Assembly: GCF_054482525.1 (NCBI RefSeq) | Contig: NZ_CM137006.1 | Direction: 5' to 3' (one strand) | Length of the DNA stretch: 64,000 nucleotides | Shown here: positions 15,047 to 44,955 of the stretch, piece after piece | How positions within the stretch are numbered: the first letter of the stretch is position 1 | Layout: every line of letters starts with the position of its first letter | Translations under genes and position numbers: made by a program | The notes under the pieces: model-generated | Told to the model about the DNA's origin: nothing | Seen by the model: only the letters and a program-made list of their open reading frames with translations | Databases searched by the model: none

Positions 15047-16135
15047 TCACGGCAGGCGGTGGCGAGCTTGATAATAAGCCTGCCAGTGAGCTTCTTTATG
15101 TGTGGCGACGCGCTGTTCGAAGTAACGGCGCAGACGCGCGCGATCTTCTTCGTTATCTTTGACGATGGTTCCGGCAATACAGTCCACCAGGTCGGCAGGC
15201 TCCCCCGCGCGATTCGCTAAAAACCAGGCGCGGACACCCACAGCATGGGCCACGTTAACGGCTTCAGCGGTGGACATAATCGCTGTCAGTGTATCCATTG
15301 ACGTTTTCTTTTCGCCGTTGGCACGCAGATCGCGGAACGTGCGCACCAGTAATTCCAGTACCGTGTCAGGCACTTTATGCGGAATACCGCTATGGGCCAG
15401 CAAACGCGCCGAAGCACTGGCGACCAGTTCCAGCTCCTGGGCGAAATCCATAATCGGAAAGACAGTTTCAAAATCGAAGCGACGCTTTAGCGCAGCACTC
15501 ATTTCATTGACGCCGCGATCGCGGGTATTGGCAGTGGCAATAATATTAAAGCCTTCTCGCGCATAGAGCTGACTGGCTTCACCAGTGAGTTCCGGCACCG
15601 TCATTACCCTGTCAGAAAGCATACCTAACAGACAGTCTTGTACTTCCAGCGGTGTACGCGTTATCTCTTCAAAACGGACAATTTTGCCGTCGCGCATTCC
15701 CTGGTAAAGCGGGGCTGGGACCAGCGCTTCCGTTGACGGACCATGGTTGATAAGCAGGGCGTAGTTCCAGCCGTACTTGATTTGATCTTCAGTGGTAGAT
15801 GCGCCGCCCTGGATGGTTAACCCGGCATCGCCGCTAATAGCGGTTGCCAGTAATTCAGACAGGAGAGATTTTGCGGTGCCAGGTTCCCCCACCAACATCA
15901 AACCGCGCCCGGTTGCGAGAGTGACTAACATGCGTTCGACAGCGGAGGGGCTAATCACGACTTTACGGCTAATATTTTGTGCTTCGTCGCCAAGGATAAA
16001 AGCGCGGGCCGCAGGCAAACTTAACTGCCAACCTGGCGGGCAAGGTGCGTTATCATTTTGTTTTAATTTTGCCAGTTCATCGGCGTATAACACAGCGGCA
16101 GGCGGACGCTGCAGATGATTATTCTGCGGTGACAT
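15047..16135 (-). CDS. yehL: MoxR-like AAA+ ATPase
   Basis: Start at MSPQNNHLQ (362 aa, as in K-12 YehL). Walker A GEPGTAKS and Walker B/sensor region IVRFEEITRTPLEVQDCLLGML, typical of MoxR. Confidence 0.9.
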   Translation of the reverse strand: MSPQNNHLQRPPAAVLYADELAKLKQNDNAPCPPGWQLSLPAARAFILGDEAQNISRKVVISPSAVERMLVTLATGRGLMLVGEPGTAKSLLSELLATAISGDAGLTIQGGASTTEDQIKYGWNYALLINHGPSTEALVPAPLYQGMRDGKIVRFEEITRTPLEVQDCLLGMLSDRVMTVPELTGEASQLYAREGFNIIATANTRDRGVNEMSAALKRRFDFETVFPIMDFAQELELVASASARLLAHSGIPHKVPDTVLELLVRTFRDLRANGEKKTSMDTLTAIMSTAEAVNVAHAVGVRAWFLANRAGEPADLVDCIAGTIVKDNEEDRARLRRYFEQRVATHKEAHWQAYYQARHRLP

Positions 16136-16244
16136 ATATTCATCCCTGAAATGTATTAATGAAATAAACGATATTTTACGCGCAATAAATGTTTGGCGCA
16201 TTAGTTGTTTGAGCGAAAAATATCTGGAAAGCAGATCACAGTAA

Positions 16245-16329
16245 ATAAAAAAACCTGCTGGTGAGGCAGGTTCTTTGATTTACTACTTTCAGGCCTAACA
16301 CCACGGCCTGTGCAACATCGTGTTCCAAC
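16245..16329 (-). ncRNA. orzO: Orz-type antitoxin sRNA (predicted), copy 1
   Basis: Minus-strand promoter TTGCAA-17-TATAAT (-10 at 16336-16341). Minus-strand intrinsic terminator: stem 16252-16258/16266-16272 followed by a U-run. The 5' 20 nt (16310-16329) are complementary to the zor 5' UTR (16476-16495) with 1 mismatch. Ends are predicted, and the O/P naming is arbitrary. Confidence 0.65.
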
Positions 16330-16335
16330 GAACGA

Positions 16336-16386
16336 ATTATAACCATCGGTGGACCCCGTTGCAATTAAGATAATGAGATTTATAAT
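16336..16386. promoter_or_regulatory. divergent back-to-back sigma70 promoters for orz (minus) and zor (plus) sharing one palindromic -35 hexamer
   Basis: TTGCAA at 16359-16364 is its own reverse complement. TATAAT sits 16 bp downstream on the plus strand (16381-16386) and 17 bp downstream on the minus strand (16336-16341). The same layout occurs in copy 2 (16945-16995). Confidence 0.6.
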
Positions 16387-16566
16387 CCTGACTGTTGGGA
16401 CGTTGCGCCGGATCGAACCCATTTCAAGTCCTGGCTACCGGACGGGTGGTGCCGCAGGTAGTGCCCTGATCCGGAGTGCAACATCGTGGTCCAACATACG
16501 TAAACCAGTATCGACAGGCAGTGTAAGGGTAAGGTGCTGGTGTTGCGCTCCTTAATAAGGAGAGCG

Positions 16567-16656
16567 AATGGACACGCTGACACAAAAGTTAACCGTGCTC
16601 ATTGCTGTACTGGAGCTATTAGTGGCTCTGTTACGGTTGATTGATTTGTTGAAGTA
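16567..16656 (+). CDS. zorO: 29-aa hydrophobic type I toxin peptide (Zor family), copy 1
   Basis: Hand translation gives MDTLTQKLTVLIAVLELLVALLRLIDLLK*, which I recognise as the ZorO toxin described in E. coli O157:H7. Shine-Dalgarno AAGGAG lies upstream, and a long structured 5' UTR is predicted from about 16393. Confidence 0.8.
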
Positions 16657-16680
16657 ATGGGCAAATTGAAACGCAACTAA

Positions 16681-16703
16681 GGGGGAAAACCGCTTCCCCC
16701 TTT
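16681..16703 (+). terminator. intrinsic terminator of zor copy 1
   Basis: GGGGGAA-aaccgc-TTCCCCC stem-loop followed by TTT. Confidence 0.7.
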
Positions 16704-16852
16704 AATAAAATGATTACATCTTCCATTAATTCACCCGATAACTTTTTTCATATTTATAAATTCATCGATTTTATAATCAACGTACTATTTGGCCGGGATG
16801 TGAATAATCATGGTGGGCTATTGGCGAAAAATATCTGGAAAGTAGATCGTAG

Positions 16853-16938
16853 AAAATAAAAGAACCTGCTGGTGAGGCAGGTTCTTTTATTTACTACTTT
16901 GATGTTAAGTTACTGATAGTGCAACATGGCATCTCAAC
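16853..16938 (-). ncRNA. orzP: Orz-type antitoxin sRNA (predicted), copy 2
   Basis: Same architecture as copy 1: minus-strand -10 at 16945-16950 and terminator stem 16861-16869/16877-16885. The 5' 20 nt (16919-16938) match the cognate UTR at 17085-17104 with 2 mismatches. Confidence 0.6.
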
Positions 16939-17176
16939 GAACGAATTATAACCACCGCTGGACCGTGTTGCAATTAAGATAATGAGATTTATAATCCTGA
17001 CTGTTGGGAAGTTGCGCCGGATCGAACCCATTTCAAGTCCTGGCTACCGGACGGGTGGTGCCGCAGGTAGTGCTCTGATCCGGAGTGCAACATGGCGACT
17101 CAACATACGTAAACCAGTATCGACAGGCAGTGTAAGGGTAAGGTGCTGGTGTTGCGCTCCTTAATAAGGAGAGCGG

Positions 17177-17266
17177 ATGGACACGCTGACACAAAAGTTA
17201 ACCGTGCTCATTGCCGTACTGGAGCTATTAGTGGCTCTGTTACGGTTGATTGATTTGTTGAAGTAA
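17177..17266 (+). CDS. zorP: 29-aa type I toxin peptide (Zor family), copy 2; peptide identical to copy 1 (one synonymous change)
   Basis: Hand translation is identical to copy 1 (GCT to GCC, both Ala). Assigning O or P to a given copy is arbitrary. Confidence 0.78.
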   Translation: MDTLTQKLTVLIAVLELLVALLRLIDLLK

Positions 17267-17289
17267 TGGGCAAATTGAAACGCAACTAA

Positions 17290-17312
17290 GGGGGAAAACC
17301 GCTTCCCCCTTT
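17290..17312 (+). terminator. intrinsic terminator of zor copy 2
   Basis: Same GGGGGAA-aaccgc-TTCCCCC-TTT hairpin as copy 1. Confidence 0.7.
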
Positions 17313-17387
17313 AATAAAGTAATATTCTATTAGTTGGTTGAATATATTCTGTAGTTTACGATTAAAAATTGCTATTACAGTTTCAGG

Positions 17388-17639
17388 TTATTCACCTCGT
17401 AATTTCCGCTCATCAATACACTCATCTCTTATATAAATCAACGCATCATTTATTAGCGGGTCAACATCCTCTCGATCACGTTGATGAAATGTTGGACGTA
17501 GCCGGAACCGTTCCAGTCGGTAAACGGAACCTGTAAATAATTCAGAGCATTTATGGATCTCAAGTCTGAAGGAAAACGGATCTTCAGGTACAGGGACCTC
17601 ATAATTGTAAATAGCGACCAGCTCTTTTTGCACGCTCAT
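17388..17639 (-). CDS. yehK: small uncharacterised protein between yehI and the zor/orz module
   Basis: 83-aa ORF co-oriented with yehI, at the position of yehK in K-12. K-12 YehK is longer as I recall, so the symbol rests on position only. Confidence 0.5.
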   Translation of the reverse strand: MSVQKELVAIYNYEVPVPEDPFSFRLEIHKCSELFTGSVYRLERFRLRPTFHQRDREDVDPLINDALIYIRDECIDERKLRGE

Positions 17640-17699: not shown

Positions 17700-20600
17700 T
17701 TAATGGAAAATGACGTCGGGTGCGCTTAACGCCTCACTCAAATCAAACACATCAAGTTCGGCAAAAGTGACAGATTTATTGTCACGGTATACATGAAGAG
17801 AACGGAAGCTCATTAGCGCTTTGCTATCAACATTGTAGTGGTTAAAACCGGATGAAAACTTAAGGACCAGCCGGTACTCGCCCAGGTCATAGACAAATGC
17901 GTTCTCATAGCCTGACTCCCAGCCTTTGTATCGCATTCCCATAAGTTGCCCAACGGTAGCAGATTTACCTTCCCAGCGATTCAAACTATTACTGGCTGAC
18001 TCGTCAGGCGTGAGCAGTACTGTGCGCCGTGCCAATTGGCGAAAAGGCGGCATAATTTCGTAATCGGCAAAAAGCTGTGCAAACTCACTGCGCATTTCTG
18101 CTGCCATTTCTAACGGGTGGGCAATGCCAATCAGAGCATCGGCAGGCAGGTCAATTGGCTCATCTTGCTCATTGCAGAACTCCCCCTCAGCGGCCACACG
18201 AAAGGCGTTGAGTAAACGACGCGGTTCATTTGCCGGATAAACACCCCATATTAATCGCTGAGTAACCAGACGGGTAAAGGGATGATTAACAAACAGAGAA
18301 TGAAAATCTGCCAGCGACCAGCGTCGGGTGGTGCGCAGGGCAGTTTCAAGACGCGGGAGCAGGTTTTTGCTCACCTGAGTGGCATCTTTTTTTAGCCCTT
18401 TTAGTCGGGCCAGTGCCTCGGGTGCTTTCAGTTGATCGTCATCGGCGCGCAACCGGGGAACGCTTTTCTGGCGAACGTTTTGCTGATCAAAGATAACCGG
18501 GTTAAGGTTTTCATCGAAGCGAACGGTAAATTGCCGTGGACCAAAATCAAAAATCAACGCCTGCGGATCATCAAGACCCAGTGTTGGGACTAATCTGTCC
18601 GCTAACTGTTCCTGGCTTAGCCCTCGATTTTCTGCGACCACCTGAAGAAATTCCGCCGCGTTATCACGTAAGGGGCGGGATTTCGCCCGTTGCGATATAT
18701 GATGCAGCTGTATCAGTGCCATATCATTATTCATCTGAGTAAGGATGTTCAGGCCGCTGACGGCACGGGCAGATTTGCCTTCCTGTGGCCAGGCAAGGAT
18801 CTGTGTTGTTAGATCCCGTGCCGTGCTTTCGTCGCCAAAGAGACTTAACGCCAGAAATGCCCAGTTGTCTTTTGCGGGAGCACCAGCTTGTTGCCACGCG
18901 GTGAAAAGATCCCAGGCAAAGGCTGCCAGCGTTTGCGGCTGGCAAAACGTTTTCAGCTGTTCCAGTCCGCTATAAAAACGTCCGCCCTGGGTAAAGCGCA
19001 GCATTTCGCCGATAATTTCCAGAGCGTCATCAGTAACAGGTTGATTATTCGTGATAAGGCGCGGCCTGGACCACATTGCCGGCTGCCAGAAATCAGGGGC
19101 TTTTGGAATGCGTGTCGGGTAAATCTCTATTGGACTCTGTTTAAGTAATTGCTCCAGGGCAGGCCATACATCTTTACGCTGCCAGCGGTTTGCCACGGTT
19201 TGCAGTAACTCGCCATGTCCCTGTTCGTAAAGTAAACGCAGGGCAAGTAATGCAGCTTCGCTATTATCGCTGGATTTGGTGAAGACAAGAGGGATAAGTG
19301 CAGTAGCTGTATGTTCCGGCCATTGTAAAATCCACTGGCGGGCCAGATCTCGCTGCGCCGCGAAACGTCGCCAGACGCGGGCAACGGGCAGGGCCAGTTC
19401 GGTTGCGCCGAAATTTAAAATTAACGGAAATGTTTCTTTTGGACGATGTGAAAAAGCCAACAGCAGACCTGGTAGAGCATCCAATCCGAAGATACTGAGA
19501 AAATAGTCCTCACCCGCAGACAGATGCTTTTTCTCATTGATACGTAGCCAGAAAGTCAAAGCCATCTCACGCGGCAACTGCGCCAATAAATACAGGTTCC
19601 AGATACTCTTTTCCCGACGATAGCGTGAGTAGCTGTCATTTTCCCATATGTTAATTAACACTTCTACGTGACCGCTGTGAAGCGCCTGTTCTGCTAATTG
19701 AGCTTCCGGGGAGCTCCAGCCATTCATGATCTCTTCAACCCGCCCTGGGTAGTAATGCCACTGAACAATGAGTGAATTGCGTGCAGCATCCAGTTTTCCG
19801 GGGAGTATATAATTCAAAAACAGCCATACATCATCTCCAAAACCCAGCTCCTGTAGTACAACTCGTCCACTTTTTTGTTCCATGCGTTCCGCAAGAGATT
19901 CCGTGCTGAAATAACGGGCAGACGCAGTGGCGGCAAGCCTCTCTCGTTCGCCTGGTTGCCAGTAAACTTGCGGCGTTAATTCGAACGGTGCCAAATCAAG
20001 ACGTGGAACTGTCATTTTTTTCTTACTACGCCACGGTGGTGAAACGAGGATTTCAGGCATTTGGCTGTTATCGGTGCTATCAATAACCGTTTTGGACGGT
20101 GCCGATAAATAACTATTCAGCATTGCCCGGGCTTGAGTACTTAACCACGGCATCACCTCTTCTGCCAGTTGTGGCTGCGATGCCATCAGCGTTTGTAACA
20201 GCGTACGCCAGTATTCATCGCGTGCTTTTTGCTGTGCAGGCAGCTTTTTGTCTTCAATGATTGGATAACCAGGGCGCGCAGGTGGTTCTTTTAACGCCAG
20301 CAGTTCTGCTAATGCGGCGAGCGTCGCATGGGGGAAGTTTTTACTGTATTTAGCCACACGTTGCAGGCTGGGTTTGTTTTTATCAGCAACTAACAGCAAG
20401 GTGCGGATGACTTGCGGATGGTTAATTTGTACCAGCAGACTGCCGCAATCTTCTTTATGGGCATACATCGCGAGGCGCGGAACGGCTGCCAGTCCTTGTT
20501 CGCGCAAAAGGGCGGCGCAGGCCGCGTAGCCGAAGCGGTTTTCTTGTGACATGTAGCTGGCTTCGCGATCGCTAAATACGTCCAGGCCCCAGTATCGTTC

Positions 20601-21332
20601 GAGTTTTTTTACCGCCGTATTATCAGTAGCAACGACCTTTAACCACTCCTTTGAATGGAGACTTGACCGGGAGCTTTCAAAACTGGCGAGTTCATTGGCT
20701 ATTTCAGGTTTTTCCGGGAGGATCAGCGCAATAAAAGGACGGCGAATTTTGGGTATTCCTGGCAGTGCGGCAATGAGTTTATCGGCACAACGCTGCCAGC
20801 AACTTTCCTCTGCCAGCGACAGATGCTTACGCAAACGGAGATCGAAATCGTTATAGGTCGCGGAGCCATAACCGTAGCTATAGTCCTCGTCCTGATACTG
20901 CAAAGTGACGACCAGTGAGTCACTCTCATAACGCCGCGCAATGCACTGACGCGATATCACTACATCCGTCGCATATTCCAGCCCCTCTTGTTGCACGATT
21001 TCATCAAGTAACTGCTGGCTGTCATTTTGCGCGATACAGATCAGAGCCGCCATGGTAAGGGCTGGGATTGACGGTTTATGCTCGCCAGTCAAATTGATTG
21101 CCTGCTGGATGGCGGACTGCCACTCCAGTGAGCATTTATCATAATTCCAGGTGATATTTTCCTTCTGGCCTGCTTGTTGTAGTAATTCATCTCCCAATGT
21201 CTGGATGAGACTTCCAGTGATAACGGACACTGGTTCGCCCGGCCAGCGACGATGACTGAGCGGCGTTTTGCCTTTTTTATATTTCAGTTCCAGTTGGGCG
21301 TTATCCGCCAGCCACGGTAATTCCTTGTCCAT
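17700..21332 (-). CDS. yehI: 1210-aa DUF4132-type protein, paralog of MolR
   Basis: Same length as K-12 YehI. It shares long conserved blocks with the upstream 1249-aa ORF, for example FGPRQFTVRFDE and LFADYEIMPPFRQL. Confidence 0.9.
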   Translation of the reverse strand: MDKELPWLADNAQLELKYKKGKTPLSHRRWPGEPVSVITGSLIQTLGDELLQQAGQKENITWNYDKCSLEWQSAIQQAINLTGEHKPSIPALTMAALICIAQNDSQQLLDEIVQQEGLEYATDVVISRQCIARRYESDSLVVTLQYQDEDYSYGYGSATYNDFDLRLRKHLSLAEESCWQRCADKLIAALPGIPKIRRPFIALILPEKPEIANELASFESSRSSLHSKEWLKVVATDNTAVKKLERYWGLDVFSDREASYMSQENRFGYAACAALLREQGLAAVPRLAMYAHKEDCGSLLVQINHPQVIRTLLLVADKNKPSLQRVAKYSKNFPHATLAALAELLALKEPPARPGYPIIEDKKLPAQQKARDEYWRTLLQTLMASQPQLAEEVMPWLSTQARAMLNSYLSAPSKTVIDSTDNSQMPEILVSPPWRSKKKMTVPRLDLAPFELTPQVYWQPGERERLAATASARYFSTESLAERMEQKSGRVVLQELGFGDDVWLFLNYILPGKLDAARNSLIVQWHYYPGRVEEIMNGWSSPEAQLAEQALHSGHVEVLINIWENDSYSRYRREKSIWNLYLLAQLPREMALTFWLRINEKKHLSAGEDYFLSIFGLDALPGLLLAFSHRPKETFPLILNFGATELALPVARVWRRFAAQRDLARQWILQWPEHTATALIPLVFTKSSDNSEAALLALRLLYEQGHGELLQTVANRWQRKDVWPALEQLLKQSPIEIYPTRIPKAPDFWQPAMWSRPRLITNNQPVTDDALEIIGEMLRFTQGGRFYSGLEQLKTFCQPQTLAAFAWDLFTAWQQAGAPAKDNWAFLALSLFGDESTARDLTTQILAWPQEGKSARAVSGLNILTQMNNDMALIQLHHISQRAKSRPLRDNAAEFLQVVAENRGLSQEQLADRLVPTLGLDDPQALIFDFGPRQFTVRFDENLNPVIFDQQNVRQKSVPRLRADDDQLKAPEALARLKGLKKDATQVSKNLLPRLETALRTTRRWSLADFHSLFVNHPFTRLVTQRLIWGVYPANEPRRLLNAFRVAAEGEFCNEQDEPIDLPADALIGIAHPLEMAAEMRSEFAQLFADYEIMPPFRQLARRTVLLTPDESASNSLNRWEGKSATVGQLMGMRYKGWESGYENAFVYDLGEYRLVLKFSSGFNHYNVDSKALMSFRSLHVYRDNKSVTFAELDVFDLSEALSAPDVIFH

Positions 21333-36142: not shown

Positions 36143-36224
36143 CAACCAAACGACTCGGGGTGCCCTTCTGCGTGAAGGCTGAGAAATACCCGTATCACCT
36201 GATCTGGATAATGCCAGCGTAGGG
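36143..36224 (+). repeat. attL: 82-bp direct repeat, a 5' portion of the TPP (thi-box) aptamer that lacks the 3' strand of the closing helix and the expression platform
   Basis: Identical base for base to 44033-44114. It contains CTGAGA and the other thi-box core sequences. It diverges from the thiM leader after ..GCGTAGGG. Confidence 0.9.
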
Positions 36225-36307
36225 GGCCAAAATAGTCTTGAAAATTATGTGGTTGTATCTCTTTTTGACCATAAATCATGCTGTTAAGGTACAAAAAGGG
36301 GTCGTTT

Positions 36308-37615
36308 ATGAGGTCAAGAACTCTCCCATACACATTTCAGCGAAACGGTAATTACTATCTACAAATCCGGCTTTCGGATGGTCGGATATACAAAAAATCA
36401 CTTTTTACTGACAGTTATCGCGAAGCATCGGCGTTGATGATTGGCCTTACTCCGCACATTCCTTTCGTTAAATCACTCGCTACTCCGTTGCCGCAATTTA
36501 ATAAGTTTGTTTCAAACTTGATCGCTTCGTCACGTAACGTAATGATTCCGTTGCCACTCCCTCAGCAATTGAACAATATTTCTAAAGAAGTTTTGCAGCT
36601 TCAACCACCAGCCAAACCGGAAAAGGTACTAACACTTGCTGATGCGTGGGCTATGTACAAGGAGGAAAGAGGTCGAAATTGGACAAAATCGATCTCAATA
36701 GCAAATGAGCGTTATATGGAGGTATTGCTTGTTGTCTTGGGAAAAGAAACAGACGTAACGGCAATCACCAAACAAGATATTAAGCGAGTAATGGAAACTG
36801 TCGAAAACTTACCAAAGCGTGTAGTGCAACCGTATAGGTCAATGACTATTCAGCAACTAATCGAATGTGATGATGTGCTGCCAGAGGATTTAGTTGGTGC
36901 TGAGGCTGTACATAAGCACCTTAAAATCTACAAATCGTTATTCAAAACATTTCTGACTGAAAACAAAGATATTCTATCTAAGTCTCCGACTGATGGAATA
37001 GTAGCGGCACCATCCAAAGCTAGGTTTGGTGCATACAGTGCAGCAGAAATGAAAAAATTTGTAGGATGGGCACTAAAGCAGCCTGATGGATGGCAGAAGT
37101 GGATCACTTTGTTGTTGGCGTACACAGGAGCCAGAAGAGGTGAGATTGCTAAACTGGAGAAGTCGCAGATCAAATTTGATGAAGATAGCCAGCGGCACTA
37201 TCTTCTGATCGCGGAAAGAAGGCTGGGTAAAACTGAGAATGCTACAAGACAGGTAGTGATTCATCCCAAACTGATTGAGTGGGGGTTTCTGGATTTTGTT
37301 AACCGCCAATGGAAAGAGAAAATCTTTTCGGAAGTCTCAGGTCGAAATATGTCAAAGATAGGTAAAGTTCTTTCAGATGTTCGTGATCAGCTTGATATTC
37401 CTTATCTTGATGATTATGGGCAGCGGCGCTTGGTGCATAGTTTCCGGCATACTATGATTTCTACTTGTTTAGCTGGTTGGGTGAGTAATTTGGCGCATCT
37501 GCAACAGGTGGTAGGTCATGAAAAGAGTGGAGTAGGGATTACCCAGCGTTATCTGCACACATTCCCACTTTCCACCGTTTGTTATGTGATCGATGGTCTT
37601 TGTTGGGAGACTTAG
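36308..37615 (+). CDS. tyrosine recombinase / integrase
   Basis: The ORF in the track starts at 36278. I prefer the ATG at 36308, after an AAAGGGG Shine-Dalgarno. N-terminal arm-binding-like RNGNYYLQIRL, then catalytic-domain motifs ARRGEI, HSFRHT and GHEKSGVGITQRYLH (Tyr). Confidence 0.88.
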   Translation: MRSRTLPYTFQRNGNYYLQIRLSDGRIYKKSLFTDSYREASALMIGLTPHIPFVKSLATPLPQFNKFVSNLIASSRNVMIPLPLPQQLNNISKEVLQLQPPAKPEKVLTLADAWAMYKEERGRNWTKSISIANERYMEVLLVVLGKETDVTAITKQDIKRVMETVENLPKRVVQPYRSMTIQQLIECDDVLPEDLVGAEAVHKHLKIYKSLFKTFLTENKDILSKSPTDGIVAAPSKARFGAYSAAEMKKFVGWALKQPDGWQKWITLLLAYTGARRGEIAKLEKSQIKFDEDSQRHYLLIAERRLGKTENATRQVVIHPKLIEWGFLDFVNRQWKEKIFSEVSGRNMSKIGKVLSDVRDQLDIPYLDDYGQRRLVHSFRHTMISTCLAGWVSNLAHLQQVVGHEKSGVGITQRYLHTFPLSTVCYVIDGLCWET

Positions 37616-37743: not shown

Positions 37744-38469
37744 ATGGTTAAAAATTTAGGCAAAAAATACAAGTATGGCGATCAACCGATAAGAGCTATT
37801 ACCATACAGATAATTGCTAATCAGTTTGGTGGGGCTGCAACGGCTAAGCAGGTAGATGATTATCTTAGAAAGCTATTTCCATCTTATAAAGATAATACTT
37901 GGCTCAATTTAATTGCTAATACAGTTAATTGTAAGCGGAGCTACTGGAGTTTCAACAAAACTGCCCGACGAACTGATGATGTAACTCATCGGCATCATAA
38001 GTATGACCGATTGTTCAAGCGTGGAAATATTTTTGAAATCTATCAACCATCTGTGCACGGTATTTGGGAATTATACCAGGATTTAGAAGGGATGTGGCGT
38101 TATCGTCAAGTAAAATCGGTTTTCGAAGAAGCTGTTGAGACGGCTGCAAAATTATCTTCAGTGGAACGAAAGCAAATTTTAGCGACAGAAAGTAAAATCC
38201 CGGAACTAATCGAAGTAACAACACGAGTTTATAAACGAAGCCCATATGTAGTTGCTGAAGTTCTTTTGAGAGCAAATGGAAAATGTCAATATTGTAAGCG
38301 AGATGCTCCTTTTCTAAAGGAAGATGGTACTCCATTTCTAGAAGTTCATCATATTGAGTGGCTTTCAAAGGGGGGGGAGGACTCTGTGGAAAATGCTATT
38401 GCATTATGTCCTAATTGCCATAGACAAGCCCATTATGGCGATCTGACATTACTACCTGTTAATAAATAG
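37744..38469 (+). CDS. HNH nuclease-domain protein with an uncharacterised 170-aa N-terminal domain (McrA-like architecture)
   Basis: C-terminal CQYCKRDAPF..EVHHIEWLSKGGEDSVENAIALCPNCHRQAH is a canonical HNH/zinc-ribbon motif. No adjacent methyltransferase gene. Confidence 0.8.
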   Translation: MVKNLGKKYKYGDQPIRAITIQIIANQFGGAATAKQVDDYLRKLFPSYKDNTWLNLIANTVNCKRSYWSFNKTARRTDDVTHRHHKYDRLFKRGNIFEIYQPSVHGIWELYQDLEGMWRYRQVKSVFEEAVETAAKLSSVERKQILATESKIPELIEVTTRVYKRSPYVVAEVLLRANGKCQYCKRDAPFLKEDGTPFLEVHHIEWLSKGGEDSVENAIALCPNCHRQAHYGDLTLLPVNK

Positions 38470-44032: not shown

Positions 44033-44166
44033 CAACCAAACGACTCGGGGTGCCCTTCTGCGTGAAGGCTGAGAAATACCCGTATCACCTGATCTGGATA
44101 ATGCCAGCGTAGGGAAGTCACGGACCACCAGGTCATTGCTTCTTCACGTTATGGCAGGAGCAAACT
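44033..44166 (+). promoter_or_regulatory. complete TPP (thi-box) riboswitch of thiM; its first 82 nt form the attR repeat
   Basis: CGACTCGGGGTGCCCTTCTGCGTGAAGGCTGAGAAATACCCGTATCACCTGATCTGGATAATGCCAGCGTAGGGAAGTC matches the well-studied E. coli thiM aptamer. It is followed by the native expression platform and a GGAG Shine-Dalgarno. Confidence 0.92.
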
Positions 44167-44955
44167 ATGCAAGTCGACCTGCTGAGTTCCGCGCAATCTG
44201 CGCACGCGTTACACCTTTTTCACCAACATTCCCCTCTTGTGCACTGCATGACCAACGATGTGGTGCAAACCTTTACTGCCAATACCTTGCTGGCGCTCGG
44301 TGCATCGCCAGCGATGGTTATCGAAACCGAAGAGGCCAGTCAGTTTGCGGCTATCGCCAGTGCGTTGCTGATTAACGTTGGCACGCTGACGCAGCCACGC
44401 GCACAGGCGATGCGTGCCGCCGTTGAACAGGCAAAACGCTCTCAAACACCCTGGATGCTTGATCCAGTAGCGGTGGGTGCACTCGATTATCGCCGCCGTT
44501 TTTGTCTGGAACTTCTGTCTCATAAGCCAACCGCCATACGTGGTAATGCTTCGGAAATCATGGCATTAGCTGGCGTTGCTAATGGTGGACGGGGAGTGGA
44601 TACCACTGACGCCGCAGCTAACGCGATACCCGCTGCACAAACACTGGCACGGGAAACTGGCGCAATCGTCGTGGTCACTGGCGAGATGGATTATGTTACC
44701 GATGGACATCGTATCATTGGTATTCACGGTGGCGATCCGTTAATGACCAAAGTGGTAGGAACTGGCTGTGCATTATCGGCGGTTGTCGCTGCCTGTTGTG
44801 CGTTACCAGGCGATATGCTGGAAAATGTCGCATCTGCCTGTCACTGGATGAAACAAGCCGGAGAACGCGCAGTCGCCAGAAGCGAGGGGCCAGGCAGTTT
44901 TGTTCCACATTTCCTTGATGCGCTCTGGCAATTGACGCAGGAGGTGCAGGCATGA
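44167..44955 (+). CDS. thiM: hydroxyethylthiazole kinase
   Basis: 262 aa ([32 protein letters not shown]..), matching K-12 ThiM. The stop overlaps the thiD start. Confidence 0.95.

Follow-up and report, generated by a model that had tools for sequence, protein, structure and literature searches.

Two tandem zor-orz type I toxin–antitoxin pairs between yehL and yehK of Escherichia coli PCN033: a P-type pair and a pair of a third, probably Q, type

The zor-orz locus of Escherichia coli is a type I toxin–antitoxin locus (Fozo 2010; Wen 2014, 2017; Shore 2024), and the literature already covers the locus, how it works, how its copy number varies, the three locus types and the orphan antitoxin of K-12. 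We analyzed the zor-orz locus at positions 16213-17324 of a 64,000-nucleotide stretch of DNA (contig NZ_CM137006.1, assembly GCF_054482525.1), which is called the window here and whose coordinates are used throughout. Over 1,351 bp, positions 16100-17450 were 100% identical to chromosomal DNA of E. coli PCN033, a porcine extraintestinal pathogenic (ExPEC) strain (PMC4578781). The locus lies between yehL and yehK, and we refer to its yehL side as unit 1 and to its yehK side as unit 2. The region is very probably a chromosomal zor-orz locus with two intact tandem toxin–antitoxin pairs, one of the P type and the other of a third type that is probably Q.

In E. coli O157:H7 EDL933, overproduction of ZorO causes growth stasis, and rescue by the small RNA (sRNA) OrzO depends on RNase III but not on Hfq and is exerted via the first 18 nt of OrzO (PMC3919570). 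The full-length 174-nt leader of zorO sequesters the ribosome binding site (RBS) together with a region at +73..+102 termed EAP; the Δ28 form exposes EAP and is better translated, and OrzO binding at this region blocks translation (PMC5397157). ZorO resides in the inner membrane and harms membrane integrity and potential (PMC6669753), and its overexpression depletes ATP (PMC9860968). A trait of the family is that the 5' end of Orz is complementary to a site in the zor 5' untranslated region (UTR) that lies upstream of the RBS by approximately 60 nt or more. For repression, the reported rule is a continuous pairing of at least 15 nt, or a pairing of 17 nt if one internal mismatch is present (PMC11264685, citing Wen 2014). 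When 2,212 complete genomes were surveyed, two full copies were found in 42%, one in 25% and orz only in ~30%, and the ZorO protein represented 72.5% of all zor open reading frames (ORFs) (PMC11264685).

A direct-repeat search showed that the locus is built of two ~490-bp direct repeats with a spacing of 609–611 bp, detected as a 300-nt family (16310-16609 versus 16919-17218; identity 94%, spacing 609) and a 77-nt family (16213-16289 versus 16824-16900; identity 92%, spacing 611). The tandem duplication proposed in an initial annotation, which had been made from the sequence alone, was thus borne out, as was its recognition of a ZorO peptide in each unit: both 29-aa peptides, MDTLTQKLTVLIAVLELLVALLRLIDLLK, are letter for letter identical to published ZorO (PMC6669753, section 4.3). 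The same annotation had stated that the two toxins are identical as proteins with one synonymous change, and the ORFs indeed differ by a single base, GCT/GCC at Ala13 (89/90 identical); in the spacer between the Shine–Dalgarno (SD) sequence and the start codon, one base differs between the units (gcgaATG versus gcggATG). The peptide is hydrophobic, with a grand average of hydropathy of 1.40 and 62% L/I/V/A. Unit 1 has T3 and not the T3S variant of ZorP, and unit 2 has A20 and not the A20S variant of ZorQ. Scans of the 29-aa peptide against NCBIfam and Pfam returned no family, a result that is uninformative at such short length.

The divergent sRNA that had been predicted for each unit was also found. 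The Rfam model RF02083 (OrzO-P; gathering score 60) gave two full-length matches on the minus strand, one of 91.9 bits at 16247-16322 and one of 90.2 bits at 16858-16931, and the terminator of unit 1 orz was located at 16276-16248. Sub-threshold Rfam matches to ohsC, STnc370, Trp leader and ncr1015 were dismissed, as they scored below the gathering score and overlapped the Orz terminator. The +1 positions of orz (16329 and 16938) were deduced from the distance of 6 nt past the -10 box and from the numbering of Wen 2014, in which the variable triplet V1 is +9..+11, and those of zor (16394 and 17003) were placed 174 nt upstream of the ATG (PMC5397157), which is 7 nt past the -10 boxes.

A promoter scan of the region gave exactly four sites, two per unit, and no promoter-like site beyond those four; the sites of unit 1 matched at 10/12 positions each. 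The hexamers are the same as those reported to be >99% conserved among zor/orz, i.e. -35 TTGCAA and -10 TATAAT (PMC11264685 Table 3). One palindromic -35 TTGCAA per unit serves both zor and orz, and the divergent promoters overlap fully at -35. Both units have TTGCAA/TATAAT promoters for both genes, the 174-nt leader and the RBS AAGGAG, and in-silico folding predicted that this SD sequence is sequestered, with a probability of being unpaired, P(unpaired), of 0.07–0.11. All elements, including the promoters, leader, SD sequence, ORF, hairpins and cognate pairing, are intact in both units.

The O, P and Q pairs are distinguished by the recognition allele of the antitoxin, and naming the pairs by toxin peptide alone is therefore misleading. 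V1 is GAA in OrzO and ACG in OrzP (Wen 2014, PMC3919570). In an O157:H7 genome (locus L002), the yehL-side unit combines ACG with the peptide MDSLTQ... (T3S, ZorP) and the yehK-side unit combines GAA with MDTLTQ... (ZorO); by V1 and peptides, the former is thus zorP-orzP and the latter zorO-orzO. It had at first been assumed that the yehL-proximal unit is zorO, but the V1 definition of Wen 2014 overturned this assumption. In PCN033, V1 is ACG in unit 1 and GCC in unit 2. The first 24 nt of unit 1 Orz are those of O157:H7 and K-12 OrzP, and the 20-nt target is that of the O157:H7 yehL-proximal unit; ACG together with a matching leader target was found in unit 1 only, and GAA with the 5' end GUUGGUACGAAAUGUUGC was found in neither unit. 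Judged from its sequence, unit 1 is zorP/orzP-type by antitoxin recognition allele. The Orz 5' end of unit 2, GUUGAGAUGCCAUGUUGCAC, and its target, GUGCAACAUGGCGACUCAAC, differ from both O and P, and the changes match each other. Unit 2 is of a third type, most likely zorQ/orzQ of Shore 2024. The published criterion for the zorQ/orzQ type is a BLASTn bit score >650 to the reference, and A20S is a common protein variant (Shore 2024).

With 61-nt probes spanning the Orz 5' region, the third allele (GUUGAGAUGCC...) was found in 855 of the 5,426 complete E. coli genomes, P in 4,683 and O in 1,262. At 24 sampled loci, the Orz type agreed with the zor target type in every unit in which both parts were detected; at one of these loci (L021), a Q-type orz was missed by the search pattern. 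The combinations seen in the sampled loci were P+O, P+Q and O+Q, plus single P or single O units, and T3S was confined to the P units of P+O genomes. Among these loci, A20S (ZorQ) was limited to units of the third type (L004 and L022), which lends indirect support to the Q label of unit 2. The query was covered to at least 80% by 3,391 genomes; since single-copy loci match both query copies, this figure is not a two-copy count and it was left unused.

The pairing between each Orz and its own zor leader was 19/20 at +83..+102 in both units, with a ΔG of -34.4 kcal/mol, and the unit 2 duplex contains one mismatch and one G-U pair. In both units the cognate pairing suffices under the published rule, in its form of 17 nt with a single mismatch, and shows the complementarity that is characteristic of the family, and the unit 1 target falls inside the published EAP/standby region (+73..+102). 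Cross pairings between the units had 3–4 mismatches, a longest run of 9 and ΔG values of -21.3 (unit 2 leader with unit 1 Orz) and -22.6. Since pairing is 19/20 between an Orz and the leader of the same unit but poor across units, the two pairs look mutually insulated. It has been proposed that cross-talk is prevented by variation in the pairing region (Shore 2024, PMC11264685).

Units 1 and 2 differ mainly in the Orz 5' half, where 21/39 positions are identical, and in the target, where 15/20 are. Identity was 80/82 in leader +1..+82, 71/72 in leader +103..+174, 48/48 in the 3' UTR and hairpin, and 60/64 in the promoter region, where the O157 units are more diverged (48/64); very few differences between the units fall outside the 39-nt and 20-nt modules. 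This pattern fits specificity modules that may have been kept apart while the remainder was homogenised or recently copied. We lean towards the view that recent duplication or gene conversion keeps the units near-identical apart from the 5' half of Orz and the 20-nt target, so that P and Q specificities stand side by side without cross-talk, and that E. coli has at least three orthogonal Orz-zor recognition codes, shuffled between two slots.

By analogy, the mechanism described in EDL933 would carry over to the P and Q pairs, and both pairs would be expressed in PCN033. In each unit, two back-to-back sigma-70 promoters with one common palindromic -35 hexamer would produce, from the plus strand, a ~310-nt zor mRNA with a 174-nt leader encoding the 29-aa hydrophobic inner-membrane toxin that equals ZorO and, from the minus strand, the ~83-nt Orz sRNA. 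The full-length leader would hide both the RBS and its own EAP region at +73..+102; loss of the first 28 nt would expose EAP, which is probably a ribosome standby site, and thereby promote translation. The first ~20 nt of Orz would pair with +83..+102, leading to translation block and RNase III-dependent decay, and toxin that escapes this control would cause membrane depolarisation and lower ATP.

Over its first ~20 nt (GUUGGGACGUUGCGCC...), each zor mRNA is similar to the Orz 5' end (GUUGGAACACGAUGUUGC...), as was seen when the mRNA starts (16394-16415 and 17003-17024) were compared with the Orz 5' ends (16310-16329 and 16919-16938). In the minimum free energy fold of unit 1, the first ~22 nt of the zor mRNA pair with +75..+102, the region targeted by Orz. 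The 5' end of the zor mRNA may thus be an in-cis mimic of the antitoxin, a model-based proposal that fits the published EAP model.

Several points weigh against the interpretation of the locus as two functional pairs of the P and Q types. The Q label on unit 2 is inferred from its recognition allele and from the sampled loci. OrzO-zorO is the only Orz-zor pair known to have been tested experimentally, and the third (Q-type) pairing is a prediction; toxicity and Orz rescue are expected of both units by analogy, the protein being identical to the toxic EDL933 ZorO. Both cognate duplexes have one internal mismatch at Orz +7. When the Δ28 form was folded, P(unpaired) of EAP went from 0.31 to 0.37 in unit 1 and from 0.38 to 0.26 in unit 2, showing no clear opening; the change was small or inconsistent and was not used as evidence, and the published probing of EDL933 zorO is therefore the sole basis of the 28-nt processing step. 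In addition, none of the zor toxins or orz sRNAs is annotated in the RefSeq annotation of PCN033.

The initial annotation had named one pair zorO-orzO and the other zorP-orzP, as in EDL933. The assignment to the zor-orz family stands, and this naming has in its favour that both peptides equal the ZorO protein, that unit 1 Orz has the OrzP allele and that the yehL-yehK position is the same as in O157:H7. The alleles, however, do not agree with it: with V1 being ACG in unit 1 and GCC in unit 2, neither unit has the OrzO GAA at +9..+11 and an EDL933-type orzO is absent from the locus. Compared with the O157 zorO-orzO unit, unit 2 matches at 27/37 positions of the Orz 5' half, at 13/20 of the target and at 46/64 of the promoter region; the 5' end of EDL933-type OrzO pairs poorly with both leaders (longest run 9), and unit 1 has T3 where EDL933 ZorP has S3. 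The O+P combination is refuted at the allele level, and we regard it as very unlikely. A BLASTN comparison with Z3289/Z3290, which had been suggested as a check, would match both ORFs but would miss the difference between the antitoxin alleles.

It is likewise highly improbable, slightly more so, that both units have decayed into remnants without function, as in K-12, where orz alone is left. Orz-only remnants occur in the ~30% of E. coli mentioned above (PMC11264685), this strain has a pseudogene next door in yehK, and RefSeq lists no zor/orz here, but both units keep the promoters, the 174-nt leader, the SD sequence AAGGAG, the terminator hairpins and the cognate Orz pairing, and both 29-aa ORFs are intact and encode a peptide shown to be toxic, the only ORF difference being synonymous. 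We see next to no chance that two ORFs in the leaders, 16349..16555 (68 aa) and 16982..17164 (60 aa), are the true genes and the 29-aa ORFs incidental. The leader ORFs are open in both units, and at the default 60-aa ORF cut-off they are listed in place of the toxins, as the initial annotation had pointed out in calling them spurious. Their starts (GTG 16349, ATG 16373 and ATG 16982), however, lie upstream of the predicted zor transcription starts, with both ATGs preceding the -10 box by no more than a few bases, and scans of both leader ORFs against Pfam and NCBIfam gave no match, whereas toxicity, membrane localisation and in-vitro translation have been published for the 29-aa product (PMC3919570, PMC5397157, PMC6669753).

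The features of the two zor-orz pairs and their flanks are collected in Table 1.

Table 1. Positions of the zor-orz features and flanking genes in the window
Feature	Position	Strand	Details and basis
yehL, ATP-binding protein (flank)	15047..16135	-	RefSeq annotation of PCN033
orz, unit 1 (OrzP-type, ~83 nt)	16247..16329	-	RF02083; 5' end GUUGGAACACGAUGUUGCAC; intrinsic terminator at 3' end
Back-to-back promoters, unit 1	16336..16386		-35 TTGCAA 16359-16364; orz -10 TATAAT 16341-16336(-); zor -10 TATAAT 16381-16386(+)
zor 5' UTR, unit 1 (174 nt)	16394..16567	+	Orz target +83..+102 = 16476-16495, GUGCAACAUCGUGGUCCAAC
Toxin ORF, unit 1 (29 aa)	16568..16657	+	ORF translation, MDTLTQKLTVLIAVLELLVALLRLIDLLK; equals ZorO
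GC-rich hairpin 3' of unit 1 ORF, presumed zor terminator	16679..16702		AAGGGGGAAAACCGCTTCCCCCTT; kept in O157 units
orz, unit 2 (third recognition allele, probable OrzQ type)	16856..16938	-	RF02083; 5' end GUUGAGAUGCCAUGUUGCAC
Back-to-back promoters, unit 2	16945..16995		-35 TTGCAA 16968-16973; orz -10 16950-16945(-); zor -10 16990-16995(+)
zor 5' UTR, unit 2 (174 nt)	17003..17176	+	Orz target 17085-17104, GUGCAACAUGGCGACUCAAC
Toxin ORF, unit 2 (29 aa)	17177..17266	+	ORF translation, MDTLTQKLTVLIAVLELLVALLRLIDLLK; equals unit 1 and ZorO
yehK-like pseudogene (flank)	17286..17639	-	RefSeq annotation; internal stop, codon 84
GC-rich hairpin 3' of unit 2 zor ORF	17288..17311		Overlaps 3' end of yehK pseudogene
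yehI	17700..21332	-	RefSeq annotation of PCN033

The locus is chromosomal and occupies the yehL to yehK interval, the position of the family in E. coli/Shigella. The RefSeq annotation of PCN033 also contains yehM around the locus, and every large ORF between ~9631 and 27274 has minus-strand orientation, the zor genes being the sole plus-strand genes there; annotation and ORFs thus agree with the earlier statement that the locus, flanked by yehL and yehK and opposite to them in strand, splits a co-oriented block. That statement had treated yehK as an ordinary gene neighbour, which proved incorrect, since yehK is a pseudogene in this strain: in comparison with K-12 yehK, a TCA codon is changed to the nonsense codon TAA after residue 83, and the translation ends with ...RGE. 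In genomes with an adjacent third-type (Q) unit, the yehK-like ORF is often longer and annotated as a 117-aa 'hypothetical protein', and the 3' end of this ORF reaches into the terminator hairpin of zor. The yehL-yehK interval carried no annotated zor or orz feature in any sampled genome.

In K-12-type genomes the spacer between yehL and yehK measures 306 bp and contains an orzP identical to O157 orzP. The divergent promoters and ~30 nt of the zor leader are kept, followed by a deletion that extends to yehK, and both toxin genes are absent; this remnant (1600-1840 of locus L003) is equivalent to 16213-16425 of the window. The claim that the system is absent from K-12 therefore holds for the toxin genes but not for orzP, the zor promoter and ~30 nt of leader, all of which are retained. 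The K-12 orphan antitoxin is OrzPmg, and it is expressed (PMC11264685). Among the other loci sampled, E. coli AST215 (L016, 1301-1361) carries, besides a P-type pair, an additional O-like orz that lacks a zor ('1.5 copies'), and ET791 (L015, 549-1245) has IS1 between yehL and an orz-only remnant.

The finding matters little beyond annotation, as it concerns a real but ordinary, known system in a sequenced strain. RefSeq, annotated by PGAP, omits both toxins and both sRNAs in PCN033, and ORF callers give the spurious leader ORFs. The P+Q pair would also lend itself well, as a natural case, to testing the specificity of the antitoxins.

Elsewhere in the window, thiamine pyrophosphate (TPP) riboswitch matches were found on the plus strand at 36146-36241 (61.3 bits) and 44036-44132 (71.2 bits). 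The two riboswitches share a ~82-bp exact direct repeat and bracket a ~7.9-kb segment (36278..~44030), which opens with a tyrosine integrase (36278..37615) followed by an HNH endonuclease (37744..38469). The second riboswitch copy precedes a 262-aa ORF (44167..44955), which we take to be thiM from its position in K-12-type genomes. The integrase-HNH segment was present in 67 of the 5,426 complete E. coli genomes. From its sequence, the segment looks like an integrative island that uses the TPP riboswitch aptamer as its attachment site.

When the locus is compared with known systems, type I systems such as tisB and dinQ resemble zor-orz in that a divergent sRNA pairs far upstream of the RBS and in having a long processed 5' UTR with standby-site logic (PMC5397157). 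They differ from zor-orz in their unrelated toxin and sRNA sequences, in being single-copy, and in the LexA control of tisB and dinQ. The Rfam match of unit 2 orz to ohsC is weak (35.4 bits, below the gathering score of 50). The zorQ/orzQ pair (Shore 2024) is like unit 2 in that its recognition allele is neither O nor P; the unit 2 peptide differs in having A20, as in ZorO, and the two are probably equivalent. EDL933 zorO-orzO resembles unit 2 in its location beside yehK, the same 29-aa protein, the leader at +103..+174 (72/72) and the same architecture, whereas its recognition sequences are GUUGGUACGAA.../...UUUCGUACCAAC as against GUUGAGAUGCC.../...GGCGACUCAAC in unit 2 and its promoter region shows the 46/64 identity given above. 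Unlike unit 1, zorP-orzP of O157:H7 EDL933 encodes S3 in ZorP, where unit 1 has T3 as in ZorO, and there are a few scattered base changes; like unit 1, it lies beside yehL with the same promoters and leader, and the target (20/20), the Orz 5' half (38/39) and the first 24 nt of Orz (identical) agree between the two.

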